A stretch of DNA of 63,381 nucleotides, the filler included, from Craspedostauros australis (Eukaryota), in the NCBI GenBank assembly GCA_030167865.1. It is 13 parts of 13 records of this genome, joined end to end, with 100 filler letters (N's around TTAATTAATTAA, not from the genome) between each part and the next. Parts side by side here need not be neighbours in the genome. Positions count along the whole stretch, not along the records: positions 17,575 to 22,995 come from JALAGF010004729.1; positions 23,096 to 26,577 come from JALAGF010004730.1; 11 more parts are not named here. One strand, 5' to 3'. How positions within the stretch are numbered: the stretch's first letter is position 1; every line of letters begins with the position of its first letter. The notes beneath the pieces were generated by a model. It saw only the letters and a program-made list of their open reading frames with translations. It was not told where the DNA came from and did no database searches. Both the position numbers and the translations under genes were made by a program. Shown piece after piece: positions 6,526-62,438 of the stretch.

Positions 6526-7473
6526 CTACGCGGAACAGGAAGAATTGCCGATGCAGCCTCCGTCAGCCACCGGATCAACGTTGGAATAGCATGCCATGAT
6601 ACCGAGGCAAGCTCCATCGCCAACATCGCCTTCGTTGCGGGAGCACGCTTCGTACATTTTGCACGAATCCATCCCGATCTCGCCGTAGTTGCGGGAGCAA
6701 GCTCGTTGTCCTTGGCATGACCCCGCTTCGATGTTACCGTAGTTGGAGCGGCAAGCTCGTTGTCCTTGGCATGACCCCGCACCAACGCCACCTTCGTTGA
6801 ATGCGCAAGCGTCCATGCCTTGACAGGAGCCTTGGCCAATGTAATTTGAATTCGAAACACAAGCGTAGGTACCGTTGCACGCGTACGATGCGACTTGCCC
6901 AGAGTTCTCTTGGCAGGCTGCTCTTCCAATGCAAGAGTAGTTGCCGATCTCGTCGTAGTTTTCCTCGCAAGCATACTCGGCATGACAGGAGCCTTGGCCA
7001 ATGTCATAACGATTCAAAAAACAAGAGTTTTTACCAATGCATGCGTTCGATGCGACGGTTCCGTAGGTGTAGAGGCATGCGTAAAAGCCCAAGCACGATC
7101 CTTCGTCCACATCGCCGGACTTTAGCCCACAGGCTTCCTGGCCAATACAGGAGCCGTCATTGACATTTCCGGAGTTGCTGCCACACGCCCCCATATCGAT
7201 ACATGAGCCACTACCAACGTCGCCATTGTTAGAAGAGCAAGCCCTGTCTCCGAAGCAAGAACCCTTGCCGATGGCTCCCTTGTTGGACATGCATGCTTCA
7301 ATACCATTGCAAGCGTCATCGGCGACAGTGCCAGAGTTCTCCTTGCAAGCGGCCTCGCCGTTGCAAGCACGGGAGGGCACGGACACGGCGGTGTACTGGC
7401 AGGCTCTGTCGCTGTTGCAAGAGTAGGAGGCAATCTGGATGGTCGTCGTGATGTTGGGATTGAAGAAGCAAGC
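6526..7473 (-). CDS. Cys/Gly-rich 17-aa repeat protein (IGxGSCxGxxACxxNxG), 5'-truncated by contig end; probably secreted or cell-surface
   Basis: About 17 regular repeats in ORF 6526-7386. The frame stays open to the gap at 7473. Confidence 0.75.
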   Translation of the reverse strand, partial: ACFFNPNITTTIQIASYSCNSDRACQYTAVSVPSRACNGEAACKENSGTVADDACNGIEACMSNKGAIGKGSCFGDRACSSNNGDVGSGSCIDMGACGSNSGNVNDGSCIGQEACGLKSGDVDEGSCLGFYACLYTYGTVASNACIGKNSCFLNRYDIGQGSCHAEYACEENYDEIGNYSCIGRAACQENSGQVASYACNGTYACVSNSNYIGQGSCQGMDACAFNEGGVGAGSCQGQRACRSNYGNIEAGSCQGQRACSRNYGEIGMDSCKMYEACSRNEGDVGDGACLGIMACYSNVDPVADGGCIGNSSCSA

Positions 7474-7573
7474 NNNNNNNNNNNNNNNNNNNNNNNNNNN
7501 NNNNNNNNNNNNNNNNNTTAATTAATTAANNNNNNNNNNNNNNNNNNNNNNNNNNNNNNNNNNNNNNNNNNNN
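7474..7573. other. Artificial contig spacer (N-TTAATTAATTAA-N); also at 10491, 13359, 17475, 22996, 26578, 30761, 37431, 43798, 46063, 47715 and 53328
   Basis: Twelve identical 100-nt N blocks with a central six-frame stop linker. Confidence 0.97.
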
Positions 7574-10490: not shown

Positions 10491-10692
10491 NNNNNNNNNN
10501 NNNNNNNNNNNNNNNNNNNNNNNNNNNNNNNNNNTTAATTAATTAANNNNNNNNNNNNNNNNNNNNNNNNNNNNNNNNNNNNNNNNNNNNGTCGTCTATC
10601 CAGCGAATATCGACTTCCCAGATATTGAGGATCCCAACAGCGTCGACTACCTCCTCCGTCACAGCACCATCCCGTATGCAACAGAGACAGCA

Positions 10693-13358: not shown

Positions 13359-13458
13359 NNNNNNNNNNNNNNNNNNNNNNNNNNNNNNNNNNNNNNNNNN
13401 NNTTAATTAATTAANNNNNNNNNNNNNNNNNNNNNNNNNNNNNNNNNNNNNNNNNNNN

Positions 13459-17474: not shown

Positions 17475-17574
17475 NNNNNNNNNNNNNNNNNNNNNNNNNN
17501 NNNNNNNNNNNNNNNNNNTTAATTAATTAANNNNNNNNNNNNNNNNNNNNNNNNNNNNNNNNNNNNNNNNNNNN

Positions 17575-17657
17575 TACCATTCCGGTTCCAGTCAGTCCTC
17601 ATGGGAGCTGCGGCAGAATACGGTATCTTTGCAAAGTCGTACCCCCGATTCCTGACA
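17575..17657 (-). mobile_element. 5' end of an LTR family A copy, truncated by contig end
   Basis: Reverse complement reads TGTCAGGAATCGGGGGTACG...TGCCGCAGCTCCCA. Confidence 0.8.
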
Positions 17658-20600
17658 GACGTTTCTGTGACATGGAACTGAGATTCAGTATGGACAGCAT
17701 CCGCATCTCCTGCATTGTTTGTACTTTCTACATCTACTTCTATGCCATCACCTTACTGTACCTGAGCAATATCGAATTATGTCTTCCTCGGTTCGCCATC
17801 TATGCTAAGAACAGTCATCGTCTTGTTGCCTTATGCCAGCGGACGATTGATGTTCATACAATTGATGTTGTTTTGCTAATGATGATGGATGTAAGACCAA
17901 ATTGTGATTACTTGAGCTATCTCTCTCTTCTGCTGTCTGCACCTCTTGGTCGATCGTATTCATGCATTTCGAGATGATTTGGTTAGCACTTCTCCCAAAC
18001 CCGAGCCATTCTCTATTTGTTTTCTCGTTTTGGTTGGAGGTCAATGGTTGAAGAAGTGTCTTCTCATATGCAATTATTTCTGCACGATCAAATCTGTGTG
18101 CAGAGTTTTCACGTGACCAGAGGCGTGGGAGATGGGGTGAAACCTGTCTGTTCTGAAAATTATGTCCGTGCAGGGCAGTCATTTGCTCAGTGTGGATCCT
18201 ACTTGTGGTTTGTGCGGTATCGTCTGTCCATTGACACTCATCATTCGGATTCGGCCAGATTCGTGAATTGGCACTAAATCTGCACACTCCCTCTTGTCGG
18301 TGGCATGAGCGGACCGCGCTTACCATCCCAATAGTTGCAATCGCAGAGATTCGAATAGTGGATGTGCCAAGAGCTTGGTGAATACATCAGCCATCTGGTC
18401 CAACGTGTCGACCTTTTCAATGGTGATGAGCCCTTTGCTGACAGCTTCATGGAAGTGATGGTATTTGACATTGATGTGTTTGGTACAAGGACGCATTCTG
18501 GGTGCGTTTGTGAGTTCGAGGGCACCGGAGTTGTCCTCAAATGCTGCACAGTGAACTGTTGGCGGAGAAGTGTTGAATGACGATATGTGCTGCTTCATTT
18601 CATTGATGAGGTGTATGATGGGTATAACCTCTCATAGAGCTTGGCTGAGAGCCACGTACTCGGCTTCTGTGGTGCTGAGTGCGACTTCTGTTTGCAGTTT
18701 GGAGTTCCATATGATGGAGAATCCTTCCTACAGGACAACGTATCTGGTACGACTTTTGCCGTGTTGGAGTCGTTGTTGGCTTGTGTGAAGCCTCCTGCAA
18801 AGTCTGCATCAGCATAGCAGTGAATGGAGTCATTGGGTAGGTGAGATGCGGAGTCCCATATCCCATGTGTGAGCAAGGTATCGTACAATCCATTCAATGG
18901 CATCTTTGTGTGACTTCATTGGATGAGCCATGAAGCGTGTGCATTGATGGACTGTGAAGCAGATGTCAGGTCTCGTCGATCATGTGAGGAAGTTGAGCAT
19001 CCCCACAACTGACCGATATTTGAATCGCCAAGTAGCAGCAGGGCCACCAGTGTCCATGTATAGGAGTGGTCTGACGGCTGGCGTCGAATCGGTTCGTCCT
19101 GGTGAGTCAGAATCGATCTTGGCTGCTCGTATGATTCGATCTATGAGTTGCGGTTGTGTGAGTGTGATGGTGTCATCAGTACGTTGGATGTGAACGCCCA
19201 GATACCCATTCATGTTGCCTTCATTGGTTTGTGTGAACCGTGCCTTGAGGCACTCGATGATGTCATCGATCTCGTGTTTGCGTGGGCCAATGATGATGGT
19301 GTCATCAACGTACAGCAGAATGGATGTGTTGTCCTTGTAGAGAAGGCATTCATCAACTTGGCTTTGCCGGAATCCATGCTGCATCAGGCTGTCAACCACA
19401 TGCCGATGCCATACCAATGCTGCTTGCTTGGTGCTGTACAGATTATTCTTGAGCTTGACAATGTGAGACCTGCTGTCTCCGTCCACGTTGCACCCCTGAG
19501 GTACTTGCATGAAGATGTCACATTCCACATTCGCTTGTGGGAACGCCAGAACGAAGTTGATTTGGCAAGTGTGCCAGTGCTGTTTGATGGCCATGGTGAG
19601 GAATGTCTGGATGGTGGACCATTGCACAACAGGTGCGAATGTTTCCCAGTAGTTGACACCATGTTGTTGCTCTCCTCCATGCACGCATAGCCGTGCTTTC
19701 CACTTGTAGATTTTGCCAGTTGCAAGTCTGTGTTTGCATTTGAATGACCAGACGGCTTTCAGGATCTTGTGCTCTTTTGGCACATGATTGCATTGGATGA
19801 CCTCCCAATGTTGTCTGGATTGGTGGTCTTCGATTTCCTTGTGCATTGCCCCAATAAATTTGTCGCAGCCAGGCTGCTTCTGCACTTGCCCCCAGTACAT
19901 AGTGTCATTGTCTGCAAGTGTTGCTGCGAATGACATAGGGTGCAGATCGCCCGAGTTCATGTTGAGGACGTCAGATGCGTGGAAGGATTGAGCAGTGTAT
20001 GTGTGGTAGGATTGGAGTTGGAGTGTAGGCTGGTTGGTCTCTGCACATTCTGTTGCAGATGGAGCAGATCGTGATGCGTTCTGTGTGGCAATGGCGTAGT
20101 TCCCTCTGAAGGTGAGCTTGCTGGTTGTCTTGGAAGACTGTGCCTTGGAAGGCTGGACCTTGGAAGGTTGTGCAACTTGTGCTGCATGTCAAGCTGGAAT
20201 GGCTTGGCGTCAGGTGCAGTGTGTGTGATCCCTGGAGGACGCGTGCTTGCGGAAAGCTGGTGCTGAACAGCACGTGTGATGCATTCGGAGCGCATCTGCT
20301 GCGACGGCTTGGCTGGTTCGTTGATGTGTGTGAGACGCTGCCACTGTGATGTGCCAGGAAGCAGTAGTGGGTTGGTCTTGACCGTTTGGAACCTGTCATC
20401 AAAGTTCAGATGGAACTGTGGCGATATGTACCCTGTGTCAATCTTGAGAACGATAGGTACGCTGCTCGCATGTTCAGCTGACATGCCAAGGAATATGGCG
20501 ATGTTGGCTTGGTTGCTCCACTTGGGAACCTGGGATCCCTGTTGCAGTGTGGCCTTGAGGATGTATACAGGGCATCCAAATGTGTGAAAGTGTTGCATCA

Positions 20601-22119
20601 AGGGTTGGACCTCAATCTGCGCAAATCGCTGGAGTGGCAATATACCTCCCTCTCGAGCAGCATTCCTTTGGATCTCAGAGGTGTAGTGCAGAGTATACAG
20701 CCATAGAGACGGATGAATGGCATCAGGCCAATGGTGCTGCAAATGCAAGAGCATCGAGCAAGTGGACTCTTGGAGGTCGCGGATGCGTCGCTCGGCGAAG
20801 CCATTCTGATGGTGAGCATTGACTCCACAGAATGTGATGGTTTGATTGGCTGCTGCGACAGCCGTGCGGAACAGCTGCTCAGCGAATCTGTCTTTGTCGG
20901 GGTGGCAGTGGTGTATGCAGACACCAAATGAGTGAGCATAGCGCTCGAAAGCCTGATTGGCTTGCAGCGTGTTGGCACCAGACTGGGTGAGCTGCAAGTG
21001 AACGTAGTCAATACCAAGGTACTGATCAGCAAACACTGTCACGCATGTGTATCGCGACCAGGTGTGCGTGCCGTTTTGCTGCGGAAGCACCCCAGGCTGG
21101 CAGGAGAAAATCTGGTGGACTGACACTATATGCCCTGGGAATCGCGCTCGTTTGACAACGTGCATGATATGGTTTGGCTTGCGCCGACGGATGGCTTTGC
21201 CATAGATGCACCCAGAGCAGAGAGGGAACTCGGCCTTGGCCAAGTGTCGTGGTATGATGCTGTGTGATGCCATGTTGCGCAAGACACGGAAGGGCAGGTG
21301 TCCCAAGTGATGATGCCACCGGAGTAGCTGTCCTTGTGCGTCAGACGCACCAACAGGATGTGTTGCCAACTGATCACGGACCAGTGTGTTGTTGTCTTGG
21401 AGAGGATCGGGCCTCAACTTGGCAAGCTTGGGATCTTCGTGAACCTCCATCATGTCATCAGGGACATTGTTGATGTTGAGAAGTTCTGAGTTGCTTGGAG
21501 GACTGGAAGTAGCAAGGAATGCTGGCGCATGTCACTTGGTGTTGGTGACAGACATCAAAGGCAGGTTGGTGCCTGGATGATGATACACTGTGACCTTGCG
21601 ACGTGAAGAGCGCAGGACAGTGTAGTTGCTGTATGTCATGCAGGTACGCAGGTGTCTGTCATGGTGATCGTGGGGACCTTGGTCAGACCATTGCTGCGGA
21701 CAGAACAGATGGATGCGAAGCTGTGGCGCATAGTATGCATTGGATATCTTAATCCGCAGTGGCCTGCCATTGTTGTCAAGTATTGTCCATGACAGTGTGC
21801 CCTTGGATTGGATGGGGATGGACCCTCCAACTCCTTCTATGGTCATACCATGGATAGGTTGAAGATCGTTGTTGAAGTTGCCGCATTGTCCAGAGACTGT
21901 GACAAACATGCAAGTGTTGATTCCGATTGGCACATCACCCATCCAATGCAATGCCATCTGCATTGCAGAGGTGCCTTGCAGGTCTGTGACTGATAAGGTT
22001 GACTGGATGGGCGTGCTGACATGTCAGTTCTCGCTGATGTTTCCATTGCTGGGAGCGGAATGCTGACTACTGTTGAAGTTTCCATTGCCGTCGTCGAAGT
22101 GGACGTGAGGAGCTGACTT

Positions 22120-22325
22120 TATCAGCACAAAATCGAATAGTGCTAAGTACGTTACTCCCGTAGCCCCCACTATCTATAAATTTCACTTGTGTTCGGATCA
22201 GCAATCGCATCGCCTGTAGCTCAACAGTAGAGCACCAGTAATTCTAACTGAGGTTCCGGGTTCGAATCCCGGCATGGTACTTTGCTTTTGCTCTCCCCTC
22301 GTGATTTTTCGATAGTGCTCTTTCA
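22120..22325. mobile_element. 206-bp insertion with 5-bp TSD (GACTT) and TA...CA / TG...TA ends; solo-LTR or TRIM-like element carrying a tRNA-like gene
   Basis: GACTT at 22115-22119 and 22326-22330. Removing the insert plus one TSD restores the host frame H-T-K-S-A-P-H-V-H-F-D. Confidence 0.8.
22210..22280 (+). tRNA. tRNA-like Pol III gene or pseudo-tRNA (TTC at the anticodon position, non-canonical)
   Basis: D arm GCTC/GAGC; anticodon arm CAGT-AATTCTA-ACTG; T arm CCGGG-TTCGAAT-CCCGG (perfect B box). Acceptor stem only 4 of 7 paired and no U33. TATAAA at 22175-22180; T4 and T5 runs at 22286 and 22305. Confidence 0.7.
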
Positions 22326-23119
22326 GACTTGGTGTGTACCTTGGCGGATTTGGATGAGGATGATTTCTTGTCATACAAGTGCTTCTTCCCGGAGGATTCA
22401 GCATGCTTGCCAGATTGGGCGTGACAGTTGGATGTCTTGTGCTTGCCCCATGCCTTGTGGTTGTCACACCAATGGAAGGTGGTTCCCTGGTGGACAAAGT
22501 GCCTGGGGTTGTTGCCCTTTGGCGGATCTTGATTGGCAAGAGGGTGGTTGCTGCCTTATGGCAAGCTGTCCCTTCATTGTCCTTCTTGTTGTTTGCTTGC
22601 TTGCTGGATGATTTGGTGATTGAGGCTTTGAGTTGCTTTGTCTTGGCTCGGAGAGCAAGGAGCTGCTTGTCGCAAGAAAGGCAGTTCCATGTGCTGGCAT
22701 TGACCACGCTCTGGTACTTGGTCTCAGCAGTATTCATGAGACTGATGTAGTCTGGAGTACCGCAGTCGCTGCAGTGCTGGATGTGGCTGACAAACTCTTC
22801 ATTGTATGATATGTTGTATGCAGTGATGAGTGCAAAGGTGACTTTGCTGCCAACTGTTTTGCCTTTGGACTGGAGAGTGAAGACTTGGTTGTGAACGTGG
22901 TTGTTCAGCTGCTTGATGTTGTTGTTGAAGTCTTTGAGCTTCAACCAATGTAGATTGATACCAACCGCACCACTCCAAGCACACTCCCAAGAGTANNNNN
23001 NNNNNNNNNNNNNNNNNNNNNNNNNNNNNNNNNNNNNNNTTAATTAATTAANNNNNNNNNNNNNNNNNNNNNNNNNNNNNNNNNNNNNNNNNNNNTCAAT
23101 ACCGATGACAATCAGCGCC

Positions 23120-24841: not shown

Positions 24842-26849
24842 GGTGGAAGCACACAGGTCGCGGGACTCGCTTGAGCTGTTTGTGTGTGGGTTGGCGATTG
24901 GTGTGCAGGCCCCAAGAACAGGATTTTTCGCGAAAAGATGGCGCGAAGTTCAAGAGCCGCGCTCGTTGCCGAGCGTTTGAACTGCCGAATCAAGAACTTG
25001 AAGACCACGAGCGACACTGTCTGCCATGGCCACCAATGCCATGTGCAACCATTCGAGGCTCTGTGTGTGATTCTCCAATACCAAATGGACAACGGACTCG
25101 AGTTGTTTGCTGTGTGGACCCAGCGTGAGCATAAGACCCATTCAGGATACGATTGTATCTTCGATATGATACAATATTTCAGCACTGAATTCATCCTATC
25201 ATGCGGTATTGGGTATTTTTGTGAAGTTATAGACTCCTGAGCCTTATAGTTACAAAGTTATATTTTTCGCATTAGCCTTTGCCTAGTAGCGTCAAGCGTG
25301 CGGACGGTGCAGAGCAAATGGGGTTCGGAATCGTCAGTCGTGTTTCGACATGCTGTCCAGTCGTGTCTATCATCGACACGCTCACATTTCACGTGGGTGA
25401 GGCAGTTACTTGTAACGAAATGTTGAGGATTGCGTGGTGGCAGTGGGCATGCCGAGGCTGCTGCTTTGTCTGGGCTTTGGATCAACGGAACCCATGTGGA
25501 GAAGAATACATATGGTGGTGAGCGGGTTGCAGGCTCCATGCTACCCAAGGATGGTACACCCCAATTCAACCTTTGCTCTCTCCCTTAGCTTGACCTGCAT
25601 CATGCCTTGTGCTCAGTCTGCTGCTGTTCATGATTCAGGACGTTCAGCTTTGTCCACATCTCAATCAGCACACGCAGCCTTCCCTCCAGATACCTACTCT
25701 ATAGTACAGCCTCGTCCTTGCTTCAGGTCTATTCCCTGCCTGTGTGTTTGGACCTCCTCTCTGCTCGTCGTTGCCAATGGCCATCATTGGCTTCTAACTG
25801 TTGCTCATCTGCTCCCCCTCTTTACTTCTTGTTTCAGTGGTATTGAATCCACAAGCACTTGAATCACAATGCAAGAAACAACAAGGATAACAACACTACC
25901 GTCACCAGTCTCTTTCTGCACCATGTCAACAGCTCAGCAGATGATCATGGTGTCCCATGTCCAAGGGGAACAAAGCAGGTTGTGCAGGACTTTGCAGAAC
26001 ATTCACAAACTAAGCCAAGTATTATTTAGTATTGTATTTTGTTGTGCATAGCAAAGGATAAGTCACTGCCCTCCATTACATTACATAATATTATGTTGTG
26101 TAGCATTCACACATGTGGCTGGTGTGGCCGACATGTAGGGATGGCACCACCAATGCTTTGCTGCTTGACACAAAACCGGCAGGAGGAAACACCCAAAGGA
26201 GCCAAATCACCAACAGCGTGAGCAACCGACATGGCACTGGACCTGTCACGACATCACCATCCACACCATTGAATACAATATCGGTCTGTCATCGACCGTC
26301 AATGACGTCATGCTTTTTTCCGCGTTGAGGACAAGCCAGCCAGTATTTGTGTCGTAGACGCTAGCTAAATATGTCTAACCCTAGTTGATAACACGGTACA
26401 TCGCCATCTAAGAAAGTAGTGTTTTCCTATTATGCATCTTCAGGAAAACATGATGGTACCCAGCATGGGGATTACAGAAAACACGATGGTACACAGCATG
26501 GGGCTTGCAAGAACCACTGAATTGGCAGCAGGAGAATTGTTCTTGCTCACCACGACCACCTTCCGTTCGCAAACAGTNNNNNNNNNNNNNNNNNNNNNNN
26601 NNNNNNNNNNNNNNNNNNNNNTTAATTAATTAANNNNNNNNNNNNNNNNNNNNNNNNNNNNNNNNNNNNNNNNNNNNTCTCCTCACCAACAACAACGACT
26701 TGATCACTCTACGTTCTCGGTGCGGTATCTTCAAACCCATCTACGATTACGTTCTAACAATGTGGCAGCATGCGTGAAGCTGGCCCTTGCTTCGGCGCGG
26801 CCTTGTCCTTGGACAAGCAATTCCACATGCGTCGAGGCATGTATTAGAT

Positions 26850-30200: not shown

Positions 30201-30860
30201 GGAATACACGCAGTTCTAAAGTCCCGGACATACATATTACACGAGAAACAACACACGGATTCCGTGCTCCCCTCGCGCCCGGCGCGAGGTTGAAAGAAGG
30301 CAGAGAAAAGCGCCACCGGCTCAGCCTCATAAGAGGGTTTAATCTTTGCGTTTTTATTTATTTCTGCCTGTACGCTTCCATGTATGATATCTACGCCCAC
30401 GTATCGGAGGCTCCTTCATGATCCAGCTGAGGAATGTTTGCTCATATCCTATTTCACCCGATACAACATCCGCGGTGTGTTCCTGATGCTCTGAGGATTA
30501 GTGTCGTCAGATACGACCAGGGACTTCGACCAACGCTCATTTTTCATCCTTTGGAGATCCTGACTGCCTTATTGGAAGTCGTTGGTGGCCTCCAACCAAC
30601 CCAACATGCAATCGCAATAGTTCTATGTAGACTGCGTCAAGAGCTGCTATTGGACAACAAACTGCTGATCCATCTCTGATAATCAGCAATTACACACAGG
30701 AAAAGAGCACCAAACACTGCACTTACTACGCCGCCTGGGTGATCAATCCGATAGGTGAAGNNNNNNNNNNNNNNNNNNNNNNNNNNNNNNNNNNNNNNNN
30801 NNNNTTAATTAATTAANNNNNNNNNNNNNNNNNNNNNNNNNNNNNNNNNNNNNNNNNNNN

Positions 30861-31453
30861 CGACTCCATCCAATCCGAAATTGGTGGCGCAAATGAAGGA
30901 GGAATACCCAGAAGCTATGGAGGACCTCGACAGCGGTGCTCCAGAGGCAATCTACCCGGAACTACCGATGTATGCATTCGTGGACGCGGACCACGCTCAT
31001 GATCTGGTCACGCGGCGATCCAACACCGGCATCATCCTTTTCCTTGGCAGAACGCCTGTCTACTTCTCCAGCAAGCGGCAGACATCGGTTACCACATCGA
31101 CATACGGCGCGGAATTCAATGCACTGCGCTCGGTGACTGANGAGATTATTGCACTCAGATATGCTCTCCGATCGCTGGGAGTTCATGTCAAGTCTCCAAC
31201 CATCACATTCTGCGACAATAAGGCTGTGATCTCGAACACGACGATCGCGGACAGCCTGCTACAAAAGAAACACGTGGCCATATCGTTCCACAGAGTGCGC
31301 GAGTCCGTTGGAGCTGGGATATTGGTCCCAATATACGTTCCTTCGAAGCTCAACTTCGCGGATATGCTCACAAAGGCACTGGCACGGCCAGATCTAACCA
31401 CTTTTGTCACAGCCCTGTTCTACGGAGGTCATCCTCAAGATCAAGGGGCGTGA
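30861..31453 (+). mobile_element. CoDi-type copia RNase H C-terminus and PPT
   Basis: FVDADHAHDLVTRRSNTG...SKRQTSVTTSTYGAEF...CDNKAV...KKHVAISFHRVRE...NFADMLTK; PPT AAGGGGCG. Confidence 0.92.
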
Positions 31454-31609
31454 CAGCTTTCACTGTACTTCTTACCTCTTTACTAATCGTATTAATCAAA
31501 TACTGGTCGGAGATTGTCCTCGGACAACTCACAATAAAACAACAAGAGCTCCGACCAGGGCACGCAACAACGGGCCAATCAGTCTCAGTAGTTACTTGCA
31601 CGTTTGACA
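31451..31609 (+). mobile_element. 159-bp 3' LTR (family C)
   Basis: TGACAG...TTTGACA; reads as the exact reverse complement of 54764-54922. Confidence 0.92.
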
Positions 31610-32218: not shown

Positions 32219-35200
32219 TCAAATTTCGTAGTTCAGATCGATCTGAACCGCGTTCTTGTCGCAGATGGTATCCACCGATGGTGAATAGATCACAGTATAT
32301 GTGATTGTGTCCAAGACCATGTTGGCGTTGAAATCCGATGCGGATACGATAATGTCCATCTGATGCGGCAAGGTGTTGCAATCAGAGACCCCACCAGGGA
32401 TGTCCTTGTTGGGAGTGAACGATCCAATATTGCCACCACCGTTGGTAAACCGGATTGATGCTTGCTGCGAATTCTTGCCGAAGTTACCGAACAAGCTTAA
32501 TGTCAGGACCACATTGGTGCCAGCCTTGGCAGCGGGCATGCCTGTGAATGCAATTGCATTTGTCTGCCCTGCAACGATCGTGTTCTCTGGACTTGAGACA
32601 GAAACAGATGTTGCCATCGGCGAAACGGTGGGCATTCTGGTCGGCAGCGACGTTGTTGGTTCTTCAGAAATTGAAGGGGATGGATTCGATGACATCGTTG
32701 TCGGCGCTGATGTTGGATTTGATGTTGGCGATTCTGTTGCTTCGCTTGGTGAAGAAGATGGAGCGAGCGACGGAGACTCACTCTGCTTCTTTGTCGGTGC
32801 GTCTGTTGGATTTGATGTCGGAGATTCTGTTGCTTCGGTTGGGATAGAAGATGGAGCGATGGATGGCGATTCGCTGTCCTCTCGCGTTGGCGCGTCCGTT
32901 GGATTTGATGTCGGAGGTTCTGTTGCTTGACTTGGAGCAGAAGATGGAGCGATAGATGGTGACTCACTCTGCTTCTTTGTTGGTACGTCTGTTGGATTTG
33001 ATGTTGGCGATTCTGTTGCTTCGCTTGGAGCAGAAGATGGAGCGATAGATGGCGTCTCGCTGTGCTTCACTGTTGGTACGTCTGTTGGATTTGATGTCGG
33101 TGATTCTGTTGCTTCGCTTGGAGTAGAAGATGGAACGATAGATGGTGTCTCGCTGTGCTTGACTGTTGGCGCGTCTGTTGGGTTTGATGTCGGTGATTCC
33201 GTTGCCTCGCTAGGAGTAGAAGATGGAGCGATAGATGGTGTCTCGCTGTGTTTGACTGTGGGCGCTGACGTTGGATTTGATGTCGGAGATTCCGTTGCCT
33301 CGCTTGGAGTAGAAGATGGAGCGATGGATGGCGTCTCGCTGTGCTTGACTGTTGGCGCGTCTGTTGGATTTGATGTTGGCGATTCTGTTGCTTCGCTTGG
33401 AGCAGAAGATGGAGCGATAGATGGTGTCTCGCTGTGCTTCACTGTTGGTGCGTATGTTGGATTTGATGTTGGTGATTCTGTTACTTCGCTTGGAGTAGAA
33501 GATGGAACGATAGATGGTGTCTCGCTGTGCTTGACTGTTGGCGCGTCTGTTGGGTTTGATGTCGGTGATTCCGTTGCCTCGCTAGGAGTAGAAGATGGAG
33601 CGATAGATGGTGTCTCGCTGTGTTTGACTGTGGGCGCTGACGTTGGATTTGATGTCGGAGATTCCGTTGCCTCGCTTGGAGTAGAAGATGGAGCGATGGA
33701 TGGTGTCTCGCTGTGCTTGACTGTGGGTGCGTCTGTTGGATTTGATGTCGGCGACTCTGTTGCTTTGCTTGGTGCAGAAGATGGAACGATAGATGGTGTC
33801 TCGCTGTGCTTGGCTGTGGGCGCTGATGTTGGGTTTGATGTTGGTGATTCTGTTGATGCACTGGGAGTCGAAGATGAAGCGATAGATGGTGACTCGCTGC
33901 GCTTCACTGTTGGTGCATCGGTTGGATGTGATGTCGGAGATTCCGTTACCTCGCTTGGAGTAGAGGATGGAGAGAATGACGGCAATTCGCTCTCCTTCAG
34001 AGTCGGCGCTGACGTTGGATTCTCTGTTGGTAAGCGCGATGGGAAGGATGATGGAAAGATGGAAGGGCCCGATGACAATGCGCTCGGTGGGAAGGATGGC
34101 GATTCACTACCTGTCGGCACCGCACTCGAAACACTTGGTTGCGATGAAGGTGCTGCTGACGGTGATTCACTACCTGTCGGCATTGCACTCGAAACACTTG
34201 GCTGTGATGAAGGTGATACTGATGGCGATTCACTACCTGTGGGTACCGCGCTTGCGACACTTGGCTGTGAGGAAGGTGCTGCTGACGGTGACTCACTACC
34301 TGTCGGCATGCCGCTCTCTGCACTTGGCTTTGCGGAAGGTGCTGCTGACGGTGATTCGCTTCCGCTTGGAACCGCGCTCTCAGCACTTGGCTGTGAGGAA
34401 GGTGATAGTGATGGCGATTCACTGCCTGTTGGGACAGCACTCGAGAGACTTGGTTGTGATGAAGGTGATGCTGACGGTGGCTCGCTACCTGTGGGTACAG
34501 CACTTGCGACACTTGGCTTTGATGAAGGTGCTGCTGAAGGCAATTCACTTCCCGTTGGCACACTACTCTCGAGGCTTGGTTGTGACGAAGGTGCTGATGA
34601 CGGTGACTCACTGCCTGTCGGCACTGCACTCGAAGCCGTTGGTTGTGATGAAGGTGCTGATGACGGTGATTCACTGCCTGTGGGCACCGCACTCGAACCA
34701 GTTGGTTGTGAAGAAGGTGATACTGACGGTGATTCACTGCCTGTGGGTACAGCGCTTGCAACGCTTGGTTGTGATGAAGGTGATACTGATGGCGATTCGC
34801 TGCCTGTGGGCACCGCGCTTGCAACGCTTGGCTGGAAAGATGGGGCGGACGATGGTGATTCACTGCCTGTGGGCACTGCACTCGAACCACTTGGTTGTGA
34901 GGAAGGCGATACTGATGGCGATTCACTGCCTGTCGGCACCGCGCTCTCAGCACTTGGTTGTGATGTAGGTGCTGCTGATGGCGATTCACTGCCTGTTGGG
35001 ACAGCACTCGAGAGACTTGGCTGTGATGATGGAGCCACTGACGGTGACTCGCTACCTGTGGGTATAGCGCTTGCGACACTTGGCTTTGATGAAGGTGATA
35101 CTGATGGCGATTCACTGCCTGTGGGTACCGCGCTCTCAGCACTTGGCTGTGAGGAAGGTGCTACTGATGGCGATTCACTGCCTGTTGGTACAGCACTCGA

Positions 35201-37430
35201 GAGACTTGGCTGTGATGATGGAGCTACCGACGGTGACTCGCTACCTGTGGGTATAGCGCTCTCAGCACTTGGCTTTGATGAAGGTGATACTGATGGCGAT
35301 TCACTGCCTGTCGGCGCTGCACTCGAAGTACTTGGTTGTGACGAAGGTGCTACTGATGGCGATTCACTGCCTGTTGGTACAGCACTCGAGAGACTTGGCT
35401 GTGATGATGGAGCTACCGACGGTGACTCGCTACCTGTGGGTACGGCGCTCTCAGCACTTGACTTTGATGAAGGTGAAGATGATGGCGATTCGCTGCCTGT
35501 GGCTACCGCGCTGTCGGCACTTGGCTGTGAGGAAGGTGCTGCTGACGGTTCTTCACTTCCCGTTGCAACATCACTGTCAGCACTTGGCTTTGATGAAGGT
35601 GAAGAGGATAGCGATTCACTATCTGTGGGTACCGCGCTTGTAACGCTTGGCTGTGATGAAGGTGATACTGATGGCGATTCGCTGCCTGTGGCTACCGCGC
35701 TGTCGGCACTTGGCTGTGAGGAAGGTGCTGCTGACGGTTCTTCACTTCCCGTTGCAACATCACTGTCAGCACTTGGCTGTGAGGAAGGTGAAGATGATGG
35801 CGATTCACTGCCTGTTGGGACAGCACTCGAGAGACTTGGCTGTGATGATGGAGCCACCGACGGTGACTCGCTACCTGTGGGTACGGCGCTCTCAGCACTT
35901 GGCTGTGATGAAGGTGAAGATGATGGTGACTCGCTACCTGTGGGCACTGCGCTCTCAGCACTTGGCTGTGAGGAAGGTGATGCTGACGGTTCTTCACTTC
36001 CCGTTGCAACATCACTGTCAGCACTTGGCTGTGAGGAAGGTGATACTGATGGCGATTCACTGCCTGTTGGGACAGCACTCGAGAAACTTGGCTGTGATGA
36101 TGGAACCACCGACGGTGACTCGCTACCTGTGGGTACGGCGCTCTCAGCACTTGGCTTTGATGAAGGTGATGCTGACGGTTCTTCACTTCCCGTTGCAACA
36201 TCACTGTCAGCACTTGGCTTTGATGAAGGTGAAGATGATGGCGATTCACTACCTGTCGGCACCGCGCTCTCAGCACTTGGCTGTGAGGAAGGTGAAGATG
36301 ATGGCGATTCACTGCCTGTTGGGACAGCACTCGAGAGACTTGGCTGTGATGATGGAGCCACCGACGGTGACTCGCTACCTGTGGGTACGGCGCTCTCAGC
36401 ACTTGGCCGCGCTGAAGGTGAAAATGACTGAGCTTCGCTATCTGTGGGGGCCGCGCTTGCCAAGGTTGGCTGCGCCGAAGGTGACGCTGAAGCCAATTCA
36501 CTTGCCGTTGGAACATCACTCGACAGACTTGGCTTTGACGAAGGTGCGATTGAAGGCAAATCACTTCTCGTTGGAACACCACTCTCACCACTTGGTTGCC
36601 CCGACGGAGTCAATGATGGTTCTTCGCTACTTGTGGGTGCTGCGCTTGCGAAGCTTGGACGTGAGGAAGGAGCCGATGACGGCGATTGGCTACTCGACGG
36701 CACACCACTGGGAAGGCTTGGGTGTGACGATGGGACTGCTGACGGTGATTCGCTGCTCGATGGAACTCCGCTAGAAACGCTTGGCAGCAACGATAGAGAT
36801 GCTGACGGAATGTCACTGCTGGATGGTGCAGAACTGGGCAAATCGCTGACTGACGTCGGTCCAGATGATGGATCAGCTGATGGCATGTCACTGCTGGTTG
36901 GTGCAGAACTGGGCAAATCGCTGACTGACGTCGGTCCAGATGATGGATCTGCCGATGGCGACTCGCTGGTCGATGGTGCAGAACTGGAAAAATCACTGAC
37001 TGAGGTCGGTCCAGATGATGGATCAGCTGATGGAGTGTCATTGGTCGATGGTGCAGAACTGGGCAAATCGCTGACTGACGTCGGTCCAGATGATGGATCT
37101 GCCGATGGCGACTCGCTGGTCGATGGTGCAGAACTGGGCAAATCACTGACTGAGGTCGGTCCAGATGATGGATCAGCTGATGGCATGTCACTGCTGGATG
37201 GTGCAGAGCTGGGAAAATCGCTGACTGAGGTCGGTCCAGATGATGGGTCTGAGGACGGCATGTCACTGCTGGATGGCGCAGAACTGGGCAAATCGCTGAC
37301 TGACGTCGGTCCAGATGATGGCTCTGCTGATGGAATGCCACTGCTCGATGGTGCAGAACTGGGCAAATCGCTGACTGAGGTCGGTCCAGATGATGGGTCT
37401 GAAGACGGAATGTCACTGCCTGATGGCGAT
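32219..37430 (-). CDS. Very long Ser/Pro/Thr-rich mucin-like repeat protein with a small C-terminal globular domain, 5'-truncated
   Basis: More than 1700 open codons in three repeat blocks (SSGPTSVSDLPSSAP...; SAVPTGSESPSxxPSSQP; TESPTSNPTDAPTVKHSETPSIAPSS). The last 130 aa or so are non-repetitive with two Cys. Confidence 0.85.
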
Positions 37431-37530
37431 NNNNNNNNNNNNNNNNNNNNNNNNNNNNNNNNNNNNNNNNNNNNTTAATTAATTAANNNNNNNNNNNNNN
37501 NNNNNNNNNNNNNNNNNNNNNNNNNNNNNN

Positions 37531-43797: not shown

Positions 43798-43897
43798 NNN
43801 NNNNNNNNNNNNNNNNNNNNNNNNNNNNNNNNNNNNNNNNNTTAATTAATTAANNNNNNNNNNNNNNNNNNNNNNNNNNNNNNNNNNNNNNNNNNNN

Positions 43898-46062: not shown

Positions 46063-46162
46063 NNNNNNNNNNNNNNNNNNNNNNNNNNNNNNNNNNNNNN
46101 NNNNNNTTAATTAATTAANNNNNNNNNNNNNNNNNNNNNNNNNNNNNNNNNNNNNNNNNNNN

Positions 46163-47206
46163 GACACCTTCATTGTCTTGTGCGTTGACATCAGCGTTGG
46201 AAGATTCCAGAAGATACTTCACAACATTCAATTGACCGCTGGCACATGCAAAATGAAGTGGGGTGAAGCCGTTACTGGCTTGGATGTTGACCTCAATATT
46301 GCCCAATTCCACCAAGCATTTCACAACTTCCAAATGGCCGCACAAGCATGCCCCATGTAATGGAGTGAGGCCTTGGTGGATTTGTGTATTGGCATCAGCG
46401 TTGGAAGATTCCAACAAATATTTGACAACGTTCGAATGGCCGAATGTGCAGGCAAGATGAAGTGGAGTGGCACCGCGAGAGTCTTGGACGTTGACATCAG
46501 CATTGCATGAGTCCACCAAGTACTTCACAACCTCCAAAGGGTCACCTCCAGAGCACTCAACATTCAATGAAGCNNNNNNNNNNNNNNNNNNNNNNNNNNN
46601 NNNNNNNNNNNNNNNNNNNNNNNNNNNNNNNNNATCCGAAGCACCACGTCGGCATGCATAATGCAGCAGCGTGCAGCCAGCACTATCCACGATAGTCACA
46701 TCGACGTTGAGCGATTGCACCAGATACTTCATGCAGTCCAGATGACCTTCCAAGCATGCCCATTGAAGTGGAGTGAGGCCGCGAGTGTCTCGAACATCGA
46801 TGTCTGCATCACATGAGTCCACGAGATACTTCGCACAATCCAAATGACCGTGATGGAAAGTGCACTGGAATGCAGTTGCACCACGGAAACCAGGGATGGA
46901 TATGTCAGCGTTGCATGCTTCCACCAGGTACTTCNCACAATCCAGGTGACCATTCCAGCATGCTGACACAAGCGGGGTGCTCCCATTGTTGGCTTGGATG
47001 TTGATATAGGTCGAGCTTGATTTCACCAGATACTTCACACAAGCCAAGCGGCCTTTGCTGCATGCTCGATGCAGGAGAGTCTTGCCATTGTCATCCTTGA
47101 TGCTACCGTGATCGTCTCTTGGGTTGTTGTTCTTCCACTCCTTCAACATTGTCAGATTCCCGTCCGTGGCAGCGCGAAGGAGTTTGTCTTTCGTGATGTT
47201 GGACAT
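46163..47206 (-). CDS. Ankyrin-repeat protein (about 9 repeats), 3'-truncated; paralogue of 4103-5503
   Basis: MSNITKDKLLRAATDGNLTMLKEWK, then repeated GxTPLHxACxxGHLxxVKYLV. Confidence 0.88.
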
Positions 47207-48989
47207 GTCGGCGTCATGATTGTTGGCTGTGACGTGTGGTGTGTTGGTATTGTGTGAGTGGTGTCCGAAAGCTGAAGCAATCCGCGACAGTACATTGCGG
47301 ATGCATGAAGAATAGAAACACATCGCGTGGACGTGACGAGATGATGTGAGTTGTCGCTGATGTGATATGAGAGGAATGGAGTATGTATGCGATAGAAGTC
47401 CAATTCGCACAGAGGATTCATTCATTTTATGAACACAGCTTCGAAGAGATGGTTGGATGGAGCTGCCAGAATACGCCTTTCCCTCATGATCTCATGTTCC
47501 GTCTCGTCATGCGTCGTGTTGTCACACCTGTTTCGTTTCGTTTCGTTTCGTTTCGTTTTCGTCGTGTTCTGCCGTGTTTCGTTTCGTCACATCTCGCCTC
47601 GCCTCACCTTGCAATGAAAATGGGCGGAGTTGTGTTGAAACAGGTCTCAATCCTGTTGCTCATGTAGACCGGGTGGGGCTACAATTGGTTCACTAAGTTA
47701 GTTGTTCTGTTATCNNNNNNNNNNNNNNNNNNNNNNNNNNNNNNNNNNNNNNNNNNNNTTAATTAATTAANNNNNNNNNNNNNNNNNNNNNNNNNNNNNN
47801 NNNNNNNNNNNNNNTTTTTAACAATGTGCATTGTTTTGACAGAAAGAAACAAGAAGAGACAAGAATCATGCGATGATTTGCGTACAAGAGATGCAAAAAG
47901 AGGGATCTGGACAATCGAATCAATCATTTTGGTTCAGATTGGGCAAAAATGCGAAAAACCATGTTGGTACCATGAGAAAACAAACAGTTTGACGAAACAG
48001 TGTGGGAAACAGGGAAGGAAGAAAGCGAATCGTGACGTCACATGGGCATTGCAAAGACCTAAATCCCCACGAAAGTGGCTGTCTCCATTGCGTCCAGACA
48101 AGTCTCAATAGCGGGGCTCCCCCTGGAATTCCGACAGCCCGGCGTGTCCCAGTACCCAAGTTCTGGGGCCACTCGAACCCCTCTAATGGATGTCTTGGGG
48201 ATGTTCAGCTTGTGGATGCTTGACAGCGTGAGGAAAAGGTGTGGCTTCGCCTTGTTCAGAATCTGCACGAATAGGAACAAACACGTTGGGAAAGTCCGTT
48301 GTGAGGGTTCTGCGTGAATCACGGATTTATCGTGCCATTTGTCATACTGTGAAATTGCGTAGACAAGGCACTACTGTGTTTATTTCGTGACACAAGGCAA
48401 CGACTGTGACATCCGCGTCGCTTTCATTGAAGTTGCACCGTCCATCGCGCGTTGCAAGCATGGTTGGATCAAGGAGGATTAAGCGTGTGTGGCAAAAACG
48501 ATGAAGGTTAAATGACGCATCGTTGTTGACACAAGGAATAAAGTCTGCGGGTAGATTTGCCGAACGACTTTCACCGCGGTGCGACTCCACCTGACACAGA
48601 AGAGCAATCCACAACAACCACCAGCGAAGGAAACAGAACGTTGGGAGAGAGAAACGATCACAGACCAGACACCAAACTCTGTATGCACGCTATCTCGCGA
48701 GAAGCCAAGCAACAAGCTTCAACACAGCACAGCACAGCAGACACGCTCCCGCGTTTGCTCCACTACACGTTGTGGGCGAATCGAACCAACGCAGACAGGA
48801 TGCGACACGAAGTAAAGCAGATCAATACAGAGATGGAGCAACACAACATGACGAAACGCAACAAAGCACCAACCTCATCCCATCCTCTCACAATTTGATC
48901 TCGCAACCAATCAGCTCATAAACTCAAACTTCACGCATCACAAAGCAAAAGACACAAAACCACATCATCATCATCATCACCGTCCAACC

Positions 48990-53327: not shown

Positions 53328-53427
53328 NNNNNNNNNNNNNNNNNNNNNNNNNNNNNNNNNNNNNNNNNNNNTTAATTAATTAANNNNNNNNNNNNNNNNN
53401 NNNNNNNNNNNNNNNNNNNNNNNNNNN

Positions 53428-54709: not shown

Positions 54710-54752
54710 GGTGGAAGTGGTGGTATAGTGATAAGCTTGTTGGTGATATCAC

Positions 54753-54763
54753 GACTCTTAATC
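54753..54763 (-). promoter_or_regulatory. Putative half-tRNA primer-binding site (tRNA-Lys CUU anticodon arm)
   Basis: GATTAAGAGTC directly after the LTR CA; the complement GACUCUUAAUC is the conserved Lys-CUU anticodon stem-loop. Confidence 0.7.
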
Positions 54764-54922
54764 TGTCAAACGTGCAAGTAACTACTGAGACTGATTGGCC
54801 CGTTGTTGCGTGCCCTGGTCGGAGCTCTTGTTGTTTTATTGTGAGTTGTCCGAGGACAATCTCCGACCAGTATTTGATTAATACGATTAGTAAAGAGGTA
54901 AGAAGTACAGTGAAAGCTGTCA
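54764..54922 (-). mobile_element. 159-bp 5' LTR (family C)
   Basis: Same sequence as 31451-31609. Confidence 0.92.
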
Positions 54923-61265: not shown

Positions 61266-62438
61266 TCACAGCCTTTCCACAAAGTCTCTCAATGTCGCTG
61301 CGGCGTTCTTCCATTTGGCACCCAGCATCACGTCATGCGGCGAATCGACAACGACGGGCGCATCGAGACCGAGGTACCGAGCCGTTTCCTCGTTGCCTTC
61401 CTGATCGACAATGAAATCATCCGACGCTCCCAAAACCATGCACGGTGGTAAGTCTGCAGCGAAGGGCGCCCGTCCTTCCCCATCCGTGGCCTTGCTGGGG
61501 AGGTTCCTTCCCAGGTTCAAAAGATCGATGGTGGCAGCCGTATCGCGCTCGAAGCAGCCTTGGTATCGCACCAGATCCTCATCGCTAACACCGAGATCGT
61601 CGACGGATCCATCCGCCGCTTCGACTGGCTGACCACCAAAGAATAGATCTCTGCACAGTGCCCGGTCGCCGATGCACTTCTTCAACGCAAGTCCTGCAGT
61701 GATCTTCCAGCTCTGCACGAGGGATCTACGAAGGAACCTGGACGTCATCTTTCCGTTGCCGGATGGTGGCACGGAGCACATCATGACGATGCCACCAAAC
61801 ACATCCGATGGCTTCTTACCGCATTTCTCCAGGTACTTCATGATGATGATGCCACCGAAGGAGTGGCCGATGACCACAGGTTTCGGCGCTGAAGCGTCGC
61901 CGGCAAGCTTCGATCCAAGGATGTCCGGAAGCTGCGACAGAAATGCATCGAGATCCTGACAGTGCTCGGCGGCCTTCACCTTCTTGACGCCCTCGCCCGC
62001 GAAGGTGCCGTTCGTTCCCCTCCAGCTCAACGCGACGACGGGATATCCCAAGTCCGCAAAGTACGGGAAGAACTTCTCTGCCCAGCACCACGCTGCATGG
62101 AACGAACCATGGAGGAAGACGAGCGGTGGCTTGCCTGCCTTCTTGCCGACCATGATGTTGCTCACGAAAGATGTTGGCTTGGGGATGATGAAGAGGACTT
62201 CAGCCGAAATGCCGTCGACGGTGTCGATCTGAGTCCTCTCGATATCTGCAGGACGATTGGAGCCACCATTGCCCTTGCCTTTGTCCATGGATTGCCGCTC
62301 ATTCTGACGCCCCGATAGATCCCATTGAGATGGTCGAAACTGAAATGCCGATACCGCGCATTGTGGTTGGTGAAGCAGCATTCCGAGGAAGGATGCGAGA
62401 ATGACCATCGCCGGCATCTGGCACTTGCACAACTTCAT
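61266..62438 (-). CDS. Alpha/beta-fold hydrolase (esterase-like), probably plastid-targeted
   Basis: VSA-FQF presequence; PPLVFLHGSFHAAWCW; GHSFGG nucleophile; DDFIVD; SPHDVML. Confidence 0.88.
   Translation of the reverse strand: MKLCKCQMPAMVILASFLGMLLHQPQCAVSAFQFRPSQWDLSGRQNERQSMDKGKGNGGSNRPADIERTQIDTVDGISAEVLFIIPKPTSFVSNIMVGKKAGKPPLVFLHGSFHAAWCWAEKFFPYFADLGYPVVALSWRGTNGTFAGEGVKKVKAAEHCQDLDAFLSQLPDILGSKLAGDASAPKPVVIGHSFGGIIIMKYLEKCGKKPSDVFGGIVMMCSVPPSGNGKMTSRFLRRSLVQSWKITAGLALKKCIGDRALCRDLFFGGQPVEAADGSVDDLGVSDEDLVRYQGCFERDTAATIDLLNLGRNLPSKATDGEGRAPFAADLPPCMVLGASDDFIVDQEGNEETARYLGLDAPVVVDSPHDVMLGAKWKNAAATLRDFVERL

Follow-up and report, generated by a model that had tools for sequence, protein, structure and literature searches.

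A putative solo LTR with a tRNA-derived promoter-like module inside a decayed copia element of Craspedostauros australis

A segment of 206 bp that lies between two exact copies of GACTT in a Ty1/copia element (22120-22325) is foreign to that element and younger than its decayed copia host. We read it, at a probability of roughly one half, as a solo LTR whose promoter module derives from a tRNA, as in Helenus elements. Its interpretation as the solo LTR of a non-autonomous, Pol III-driven element is plausible from the features described below, and from these we infer its identity as an LTR, its membership of a multi-copy family and its insertion by an integrase.

The analyzed stretch of DNA (63,381 nucleotides, referred to here as the window) consists of 13 unrelated short contigs joined end to end, with linkers of the form N44-TTAATTAATTAA-N44 between them. 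The genuine genomic context of the insert is a single contig of 5421 bp, positions 17575-22995 only. The insert is known from one copy, and searches for others spanned the 63-kb window as well as sequence collections.

The insert and its host element

The features of the host element and the edges of the insert are as follows.

17575-22995, minus strand: host, a decayed Ty1/copia fragment filling one short contig (domain homology)
18980-20188, minus strand: RVT_2 in a host ORF (domain match)
19957-21531, minus strand: gag-pre-integrase and SH3 domains in a host ORF (domain match)
From about 22044 down to 21595, minus strand: protease homology of the host
22525-22439, minus strand: Gag knuckle of the host (homology)
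22115-22119, no strand: GACTT, left copy of the 5-bp duplication, a putative TSD (sequence read)
22120-22325, plus strand: 206-bp insert with TA...CA ends, a putative solo LTR (ends, composition, CpG)
22326-22330, no strand: GACTT, right copy of the 5-bp duplication (sequence read)
22124-22144, plus strand: 5′ subterminal hairpin made of AGCAC, an 11-nt loop and GTGCT (sequence; MFE and centroid structures)

The host has the lowest CpG observed/expected ratio of the 13 contigs (0.58). Its integrase, used as a query, points to Bacillariophyta clusters, a lead that suggests a diatom-like copia lineage. An alpha/beta-hydrolase query resolved no further than Eukaryota. The search with the integrase ORF gave 6583 candidates, of which 319 passed E 1e-10; among the best 120 of these 319, which were used here, the highest identity to the host integrase ORF was 50%. 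BLAST of the host DNA against the 63-kb window found no paralog of the host.

The exact GACTT duplication, the TA...CA termini and the length of 206 bp given in the initial annotation were all found at these coordinates, with the right copy of the duplication directly adjoining the 3′ end of the insert, GTGCTCTTTCA. Taken alone, the GACTT pair is not significant, because the tRNA-like core is bracketed by 43 maximal direct repeats of at least 5 nt (33 five-mers, eight six-mers and two eight-mers) when about 200 bp are considered to either side of it. What sets GACTT apart from the other repeats is an independent change in composition at its left copy: two scans placed the left change-point at about 22116-22121, one of them at 22120-22121, which is the site of the left GACTT and its junction with the insert. 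In an unbiased order-2 composition scan of the whole contig, the top non-host segment was 22120-22273, with a score of 19.0 vs. 7.7 for the next. The insert is also rich in CpG relative to its host (observed/expected 1.06 vs. 0.58), and only 3 of the 481 host windows of 206 bp attain its value; the proposal that it postdates its CpG-decayed host is borne out by this contrast together with that in composition. Other pairs of edges (ACTTG, TGTGT and CGGAT), which would give a unit of 137-146 bp beginning just 5′ of the tRNA-like sequence, were dismissed in view of the foreign composition and high CpG content of 22120-22189. An introner reading was rejected by eye, as no host-sense GT...AG pair could remove the 211 nt.

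As had been proposed, deletion of 211 bp joins the frame of the Gag knuckle to that of the protease; the joined frame has one in-frame stop. The chance of such a frame match is 1 in 3, and the host has further frame breaks: its Gag N-terminus and knuckle are in different frames, and its integrase and RT ORFs overlap in different frames. In tblastn comparisons, none of the best 120 of the 319 related polyproteins spans the insertion site; homology ends at 22044 or below, and one of the 120 (P0012) touches the knuckle. The ORF across the junction (22244-22555, minus strand) gave 14 candidates when used as a query for an empty site, none of them significant.

The subterminal motifs AGCAC and GTGCT are present as first described, AGCAC at 22124-22128 and GTGCT at both 22140-22144 and 22315-22319, the latter two within a direct repeat of ATAGTGCT (22137-22144 and 22312-22319). 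Subterminal repeats of such short length are expected by chance. An internal inverted repeat of 14 nt (22168-22181/22304-22317) is 86% complementary. Folding of the whole 206-bp unit is only mildly stable (z -2.21; 4 of 200 shuffles fold as well).

The tRNA-derived module and its promoter-like signals

The interior of the insert carries the following features.

22175-22180, plus strand: TATAAA, the one occurrence on either strand of the 5421-bp contig
22210-22279, plus strand: tRNA-derived module (Rfam tRNA match at 22215-22274; stem pairing counts)
22217-22227, plus strand: A-box-like TAGCTCAACAG, near consensus, with the TAGC..A of the A box present
22259-22269, plus strand: B box GGTTCGAATCC, in agreement with the consensus at every position and unique in the contig
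22286-22289, plus strand: run of four T's resembling a Pol III terminator, 7 nt past the tRNA-like 3′ end
22305-22309, plus strand: run of five T's, a second terminator-like site and the only TTTTT in the contig

The B-box consensus is GGTTCGANNCC. The A box, the perfect B box and the T4 and T5 runs are present inside the insert, as stated in the initial annotation, and TATAAA occupies -35 to -30, as it had claimed, when measured from tRNA-like position 1 at 22210. The Rfam tRNA model matches 22215-22274 on the plus strand at 33.1 bits, above its gathering score of 29, over model positions 6-65 of 71, leaving the acceptor stem unmatched. A permissive Rfam search of the whole 63-kb window found the module as its sole tRNA-like match, and ARAGORN called no tRNAs in the window. 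The description of the module as a complete tRNA-like gene holds for the D stem (4/4 paired) and the T stem (5/5) and fails for the acceptor stem (4/7) and for the anticodon loop, which is atypical: it reads AATTCTA, lacking the usual T at position 33, on a stem with 4 of 5 pairs. Folding of the 86-nt tRNA part is no better than that of shuffled sequences (z -0.42). A functional nuclear tRNA gene was rejected on the basis of the acceptor stem, the non-canonical loop, the missing ARAGORN call and an Rfam match confined to positions 6-65.

As judged from its sequence, the module retains what a Pol III type-2 promoter needs: its A box is close to consensus, its B box is perfect and its D and T stems are intact. 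What it has lost, a sound acceptor stem and an ordinary anticodon loop, is required of a tRNA. This pattern of wear resembles that of promoter modules in mobile elements, unlike that of a working tRNA gene. If the module has promoter activity, it may serve Pol III; alternatively, TATAAA may be the Pol II TATA box of a U3 region from which transcription would start near 22205-22210. Within a 5′ LTR, the T4 and T5 runs of the unit would halt Pol III, so that a full-length RNA made by Pol III would require read-through.

The LTR reading and its relatives

The 5-bp duplication, the T...CA ends and the length of 206 bp together fit an LTR. The 3′ CA is present, and the 5′ end is TA rather than TG, from which it is one G-to-A change away. 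LTR retrotransposons predominantly make 5-bp TSDs, and 89% of elements with termini other than TGCA are Copia, with LTRs averaging 272 bp, as stated in the LTR_retriever preprint (10.1101/137141). According to this preprint, TA...CA is a documented, rare non-canonical terminus, seen for example in TARE1 and found mostly in copia elements (10.1101/137141). These elements resemble the insert in their TA...CA termini, 5-bp TSDs and short LTRs; they differ in being plant elements, and tRNA-like content is not reported for them in what is accessible of that source (10.1101/137141). The same assembly holds a proven copia LTR of 159 bp with TG...CA ends, which is preceded by a purine tract in one context and followed by a PBS-like site in the other. 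The insert has no significant similarity to this LTR (local score 18, equaled or exceeded by 28% of 300 shuffles).

The insertion would then have taken place late, into an old CpG-decayed Ty1/copia copy, most likely by an integrase-type reaction with a 5-bp staggered cut. A small LTR retroelement, organized as LTR-PBS-internal-PPT-LTR, would have undergone reverse transcription, a copia-type integrase would have inserted it, and recombination between its LTRs could later have left a single LTR between the duplicated GACTT.

Helenus and Cassandra are among the closest known systems, and both were described correctly in the initial annotation. Helenus elements (TRIMp3) are terminal-repeat retrotransposons in miniature whose LTRs contain sequence derived from a tRNA (Kojima, 2024; PMC10886601). 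Their LTRs measure 120-323 bp; the elements make 5-bp TSDs in fungal and plant genomes, and solo LTRs flanked by TSDs of this length are known (PMC10886601). Boxes A and B are conserved in these LTRs, mostly without a functional tRNA, and in fungi Helenus seems to rely on Copia elements (PMC10886601). The insert shares with them a tRNA-like sequence that conserves the A and B boxes but does not credibly encode a functional tRNA, a 5-bp duplication and a length that falls within the LTR range of 120-323 bp; its GACTT pair is inside the 4-6 bp TSD range of Helenus and coincides with a composition edge. Unlike Helenus, it is seen as a single unit with TA...CA ends and no two-LTR form, PBS, PPT or family, and its host lineage is diatom-like. 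The upstream TATAAA and the downstream T4 and T5 runs, moreover, point to a tRNA gene captured as DNA, whereas Helenus is proposed to have arisen from a SINE inserted into an LTR (PMC10886601). No stramenopile Helenus is listed in the distribution table or text of that paper (PMC10886601).

The two-LTR form of Helenus, in which the LTRs enclose a short internal region with PBS and PPT (total length 311-1263 bp), had no counterpart here: neither the contig nor the window contains another copy of the 206-mer, and the 5.4-kb contig has no second LTR, PBS or PPT. A solo LTR would not show such a form, and the insert may therefore still belong to Helenus. BLASTN of the insert against the 63-kb window with a word size of 7 recovered only the insert itself, the next best matches being of 16 nt or less. 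A pattern joining the D arm and the B box matched no stretch in viral_contigs or metagenome_contigs, and a CpG-free 23-mer around the TATA box had no match in metagenome_contigs; a 41-aa peptide read from the insert had none among 1.84 billion representative proteins. In genome_contigs the D-arm and B-box pattern had one match, which was rejected as a copy of the insert, being a genuine Flavobacterium tRNA-Asn that shares the D arm.

The resemblance to Cassandra lies in a small-RNA gene with promoter and terminator inside an LTR, and the difference in its carrying 5S rather than tRNA. Cassandra is known from land plants, and its transcript reportedly starts in the 5′ LTR and ends in the 3′ LTR, with a terminal repeat of 18 bp. 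In the insert, by comparison, start and terminator would lie about 80 nt apart, and a transcript would reach the terminator first in the 5′ LTR. In the Helenus paper, Cassandra is described as a TRIM whose LTR contains a 5S rRNA-derived Pol III promoter and terminator (PMC10886601).

A more far-reaching proposal is that the insert represents the first LTR miniature with a Pol III promoter (TRIMp3, Helenus-type) in a stramenopile or diatom, that it arose independently when an LTR took up an entire tRNA gene unit (TATA, A and B boxes and terminator), and that it is mobilized in trans by diatom copia and was active recently enough to insert into a copia copy already decayed through methylation. 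We consider this combination doubtful and put it forward tentatively. If a family does stand behind the insert, LTR elements with small-RNA promoters would reach a fourth major lineage beyond fungi, animals and plants, and their origin would differ, with a tRNA gene captured as DNA instead of a SINE inserted into an LTR. Predictions of diatom tRNA genes would then be inflated, and potential TFIIIC and Pol III binding sites would be scattered over TE-rich regions. If the insert is single-copy, it would be an ordinary young insertion within a dead retrotransposon.

Alternative origins of the insert

The rival that fares best, though we regard it as unlikely, is a one-off patch, in which genomic DNA carrying a tRNA pseudogene with its flanks filled a break in the copia copy. 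GACTT would then stem from microhomology, from the filling-in of staggered ends or from chance. The lack of significance of the 5-bp repeat on its own agrees with this rival, as does a 5′ terminus that is not TG. As DNA, the unit also has the layout of an entire tRNA gene locus, with TATA at -35 to -30, a body and a T run 7 nt beyond it, and no second copy was found in the window, pattern or peptide searches. Against this, the absence of copies carries little weight, since the genomic search spanned the 63-kb window only, and the left composition edge coincides with the repeat while the 3′ end is CA. The module, furthermore, is already worn as a tRNA, yet the insert is young, as seen in its intact CpGs and perfect duplication. 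A worn module in a young insert suggests that the source was a tRNA relic kept only as a promoter, which is typical of mobile elements.

Considerably less probable is a tRNA-derived non-autonomous retroposon, SINE-like or moved by another RT, in which the whole 206 bp would be the mobile unit and no LTR would be involved. A short unit with a tRNA-derived module and both A and B boxes agrees with this, and so does the automatic annotation of 13 copies of "putative SINE" repeats in one diatom. tRNA-derived SINEs (SINE2) share with the insert a Pol III promoter module from a tRNA whose function has decayed; they differ in that the head of the insert is not 5′-terminal, no tail is present and the TATA box is inside the unit. 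tRNA-like position 1 (22210) is 90 nt inside the insert, and this upstream stretch departs from the host in both composition and CpG; the TATA box sits within the unit, 5′ of the head, and an A-rich, simple-repeat or LINE-like 3′ tail is absent. A Pol III transcript running from about 22210 to 22286-22309 would necessarily lack the first 90 nt and the last 16 nt of the unit. The original argument against a SINE, built on the upstream sequence and the missing tail, is upheld by the 90 nt upstream of +1 and by the lack of any A-rich or repeat tail.

A MITE-like non-autonomous DNA transposon that makes 5-bp duplications seems highly improbable. The size and the exact short duplication would suit it, as would the subterminal AGCAC/GTGCT and the 14-nt internal inverted repeat, and MITEs have been annotated in a diatom. 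However, the outermost 16 nt at the two ends show no complementarity by eye, and terminal inverted repeats are absent: none occurs among the inverted pairs listed for the insert, with nothing beyond T...A at the ends.

It is equally far-fetched that the segment is a native non-coding gag-pol spacer of the host copia family and that no insertion took place, a view that accords with the failure of all 120 related polyproteins to align across the site and with a junction-ORF search that gave no significant match but is opposed by the sharp break in composition and CpG from the host, by flanks that share one frame once the segment is removed, and by the related copia polyproteins, which are continuous ORFs from the protease onward.

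Insert boundaries and host element

The window consists of 13 short contigs and 12 linkers of the form N44-TTAATTAATTAA-N44 (7474-7573, 10491-10590, 13359-13458, 17475-17574, 22996-23095, 26578-26677, 30761-30860, 37431-37530, 43798-43897, 46063-46162, 47715-47814, 53328-53427), and represents more than one locus. Because the contigs were joined artificially, features on the two sides of a spacer are unlinked, and first-stage readings across spacers are unsafe. The insert, a 206-bp segment at 22120-22325, sits in a contig of 5421 bp (17575-22995), and its genuine context is that stretch only.

17575-22995 (-), decayed Ty1/copia element (the host)
18980-20188 (-), ORF with RVT_2 (Pfam, E 4.6e-41)
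19957-21531 (-), ORF with GAG-pre-integrase and SH3-like domains (Pfam)
22115-22119 and 22326-22330, GACTT, exact duplication around the 206-bp segment

These two ORFs, which overlap in different frames, are the only ones with Pfam matches among the six host ORFs tested. The nearest Atlas clusters of the integrase ORF are mostly from Bacillariophyta, and integrase identity of the closest host relatives is only 50% among the matches listed. None of the other 12 contigs has a CpG o/e as low as that of the host contig (0.58), their values ranging from 0.78 to 1.14; this sole strong depletion suggests that the host copy is old, and probably methylated, and that the TE fragments alongside it are younger.

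The exact GACTT duplication reported in the initial annotation was recovered. On its own it proves little, because many maximal direct repeats flank the tRNA-like core within ~200 bp on each side (33 five-mers, 8 six-mers, and 2 eight-mers). The insert is also the top compositional outlier of the entire contig under Markov models of host composition (order 2: 22120-22273, score 19.0, runner-up 7.7; order 3: 22116-22273). When the model is trained without the insert region the left edge falls at 22120-22121. The right edge is less sharp, since the 3′ part is T-rich and so close in composition to the host strand, which is rich in G+T. The CpG richness claimed for the insert was borne out (o/e 1.06 vs. 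0.58 for the host), this value being reached in only 3 of 481 same-size host windows, and CpG o/e rises to 1.32 in the 89 nt that precede the tRNA part. Shorter units starting just before the tRNA (ACTTG, TGTGT, and CGGAT pairs) are excluded by the composition edge and the upstream CpG.

Removal of the insert had been proposed to restore the host reading frame, and this held: the knuckle and protease frames are in register without the 211 bp, and one stop lies between them. Such a match has a 1 in 3 chance of arising fortuitously, and other frameshifts are present in the host. Host relatives were the best 120 listed among the proteins that met the E 1e-10 cutoff of the integrase search. In tblastn with these 120, protease-side homology begins between 21783 and 22044, the Gag zinc knuckle (22525-22439) is matched by a single relative (P0012), and none spans the insertion site. 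The window contains no host paralogue, and the search with the junction ORF returned no relative, so an empty site did not emerge from these searches either.

The tRNA-like module and the nature of the insert

Every sequence feature that had been listed for the insert is present. It starts with TA and ends with CA, its 3′ end reading ...GTGCTCTTTCA without a tail, and it contains the following elements.

22175-22180, TATAAA at -35 to -30, one occurrence in the whole contig
22259-22269, B box GGTTCGAATCC, one occurrence in the whole contig
22286-22289, T4 run, inside the insert
22305-22309, T5 run, inside the insert, one occurrence in the whole contig

The Rfam tRNA match at 22215-22274 (+) scores 33.1 bits against a gathering threshold of 29, covers model positions 6-65 of 71, and is the sole gathering-level match in the window, where relaxing the cutoff to E 1 added no further tRNA-like match. 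Counting 22210 as position 1, pairing is complete in the D (4/4) and T (5/5) stems, 4/5 in the anticodon stem and 4/7 in the acceptor stem; the anticodon loop reads AATTCTA, which is atypical. The module has thus kept its promoter boxes, together with the stems overlapping them, and lost its acceptor stem and anticodon loop. A working tRNA gene was rejected on the basis of the acceptor stem and of ARAGORN, which called no tRNA gene in the window. Since the insert is young, the tRNA relic was already worn when carried in. The tRNA part folds no more stably than shuffles (z -0.42); the unit as a whole shows mild stability (z -2.21; 4 of 200 shuffles equally good), its upstream and downstream flanks being predicted to pair around a cloverleaf-like centre. 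The 17-nt D arm TAGCTCAACAGTAGAGC is identical to that of a Flavobacterium tRNA-Asn(GTT) (L001 989-1061, minus strand), a coincidence; because a real tRNA has this 17-mer, a D arm without GG is by itself no sign of decay.

The insert is best read as a solo LTR that carries a tRNA-derived promoter module, at roughly even odds (about 0.5). A solo LTR most likely fits best because the segment is foreign, has an exact 5-bp duplication, T...CA ends, and no inverted termini, and is ~200 bp long. Duplications of 5 bp are described as predominant in LTR retrotransposons, and TA...CA as a documented non-canonical terminus; of such elements 89% are Copia, and their LTRs are short (272 bp on average) (10.1101/137141). 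For strains of P. tricornutum, most of the LTR-retrotransposon content is said to consist of solo LTRs. The initial annotation had proposed the solo LTR of a Pol III-driven non-autonomous retroelement, which is supported in part: a foreign insert with LTR-like features and a tRNA module stands, and a family or two-LTR form was not found.

Such a solo LTR would result from transcription of a parent element flanked by two LTRs of this kind, reverse transcription and integration in trans by a copia-type integrase, and LTR-LTR recombination. The tRNA module may serve to attract TFIIIC and Pol III. However, both T runs (T4 and T5) belong to the unit itself and come about 80-100 nt past the start, so Pol III initiating in a 5′ LTR would reach them ahead of the internal region, and a full-length Pol III template would need read-through. 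TATAAA could equally be the ordinary Pol II TATA of a U3, with a start near 22205-22210.

A one-off patch of a tRNA relic is an unlikely explanation. Another kind of tRNA-derived retroposon, for which the tRNA module might speak, is more doubtful still. A canonical SINE is excluded, as had been argued: 90 nt of the unit, TATA included, lie ahead of the tRNA start, a tail is lacking, and a Pol III transcript that starts at ~22210 and stops at the T runs could include neither end of the unit. Despite the short length of the unit, a MITE is highly improbable, as terminal inverted repeats were looked for in it and none found, and a native spacer, given the foreign composition, is equally so.

Relation to known elements and copy number

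Among known kinds of element, Helenus (TRIMp3) comes closest. These are miniature LTR elements with tRNA-derived sequence in the LTR, and the same wear is described for them, boxes kept and tRNA features lost (Kojima, PMC10886601). What the insert shares with them is a tRNA-like module, a duplication of 5 bp, and a length in the LTR range; a two-LTR structure with PBS and PPT and a multi-copy family were not found with it. Reports of Helenus cover fungi, six animal phyla, and Selaginella, and the words "diatom," "stramenopile," and "protist" are absent from the main text of that paper (PMC10886601). Automatic annotation of P. tricornutum lists 27 "putative TRIM/LARD" and 13 "putative SINE" copies (Phatr3 paper), and no tRNA-bearing LTR element in diatoms was found in open-access text, Phatr3 passages included. 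If a family were confirmed, it would be a known kind of element in a new lineage.

Only one copy of the insert has been seen. No other occurs in the window, exact-pattern scans returned 0 stretches in viral_contigs and, with two independent patterns, 0 in metagenome_contigs, and a peptide search with a peptide from the insert gave 0 matches. The collections scanned probably lack Craspedostauros australis, as close relatives of the host copia are missing from them too, so these empty scans tell little on copy number.

The solo-LTR reading is also in line with a proven short copia LTR of 159 bp in the same assembly, to which the insert has no similarity.

31451-31609 (+), copia 3′ LTR, TGACAGC...GTTTGACA, TG...CA ends, preceded by the end of a pol ORF and a purine tract
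~54764-54922 (-), copia 5′ LTR on another contig, 100% identical to 31451-31609
54750-54763, PBS-like site directly after the 5′ LTR, followed by a copia gag ORF

The reverse complement of the PBS-like site is presumably closer to a tRNA anticodon stem-loop than to a tRNA 3′ end, which, if true, would point to half-tRNA priming. This mode is described for fungal Copia and Helenus (PMC10886601).

Observations on other contigs

A tandem array of 63-bp units (33977-36500; at least 41 copies, each 61-81% identical to the reference copy) is contained in an ORF of 1751 aa (32219-37474, minus strand) with no Pfam match, which may encode a protein with a 21-residue repeat. More nested repeats occur at 32695-34030 and 36800-37430. 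Three non-TE genes were also identified.

6526-7473 (-), DUF7640 protein
46163-47491 (-), ankyrin-repeat protein
61266-62504 (-), alpha/beta hydrolase, sequence present in Atlas from residue 23 on
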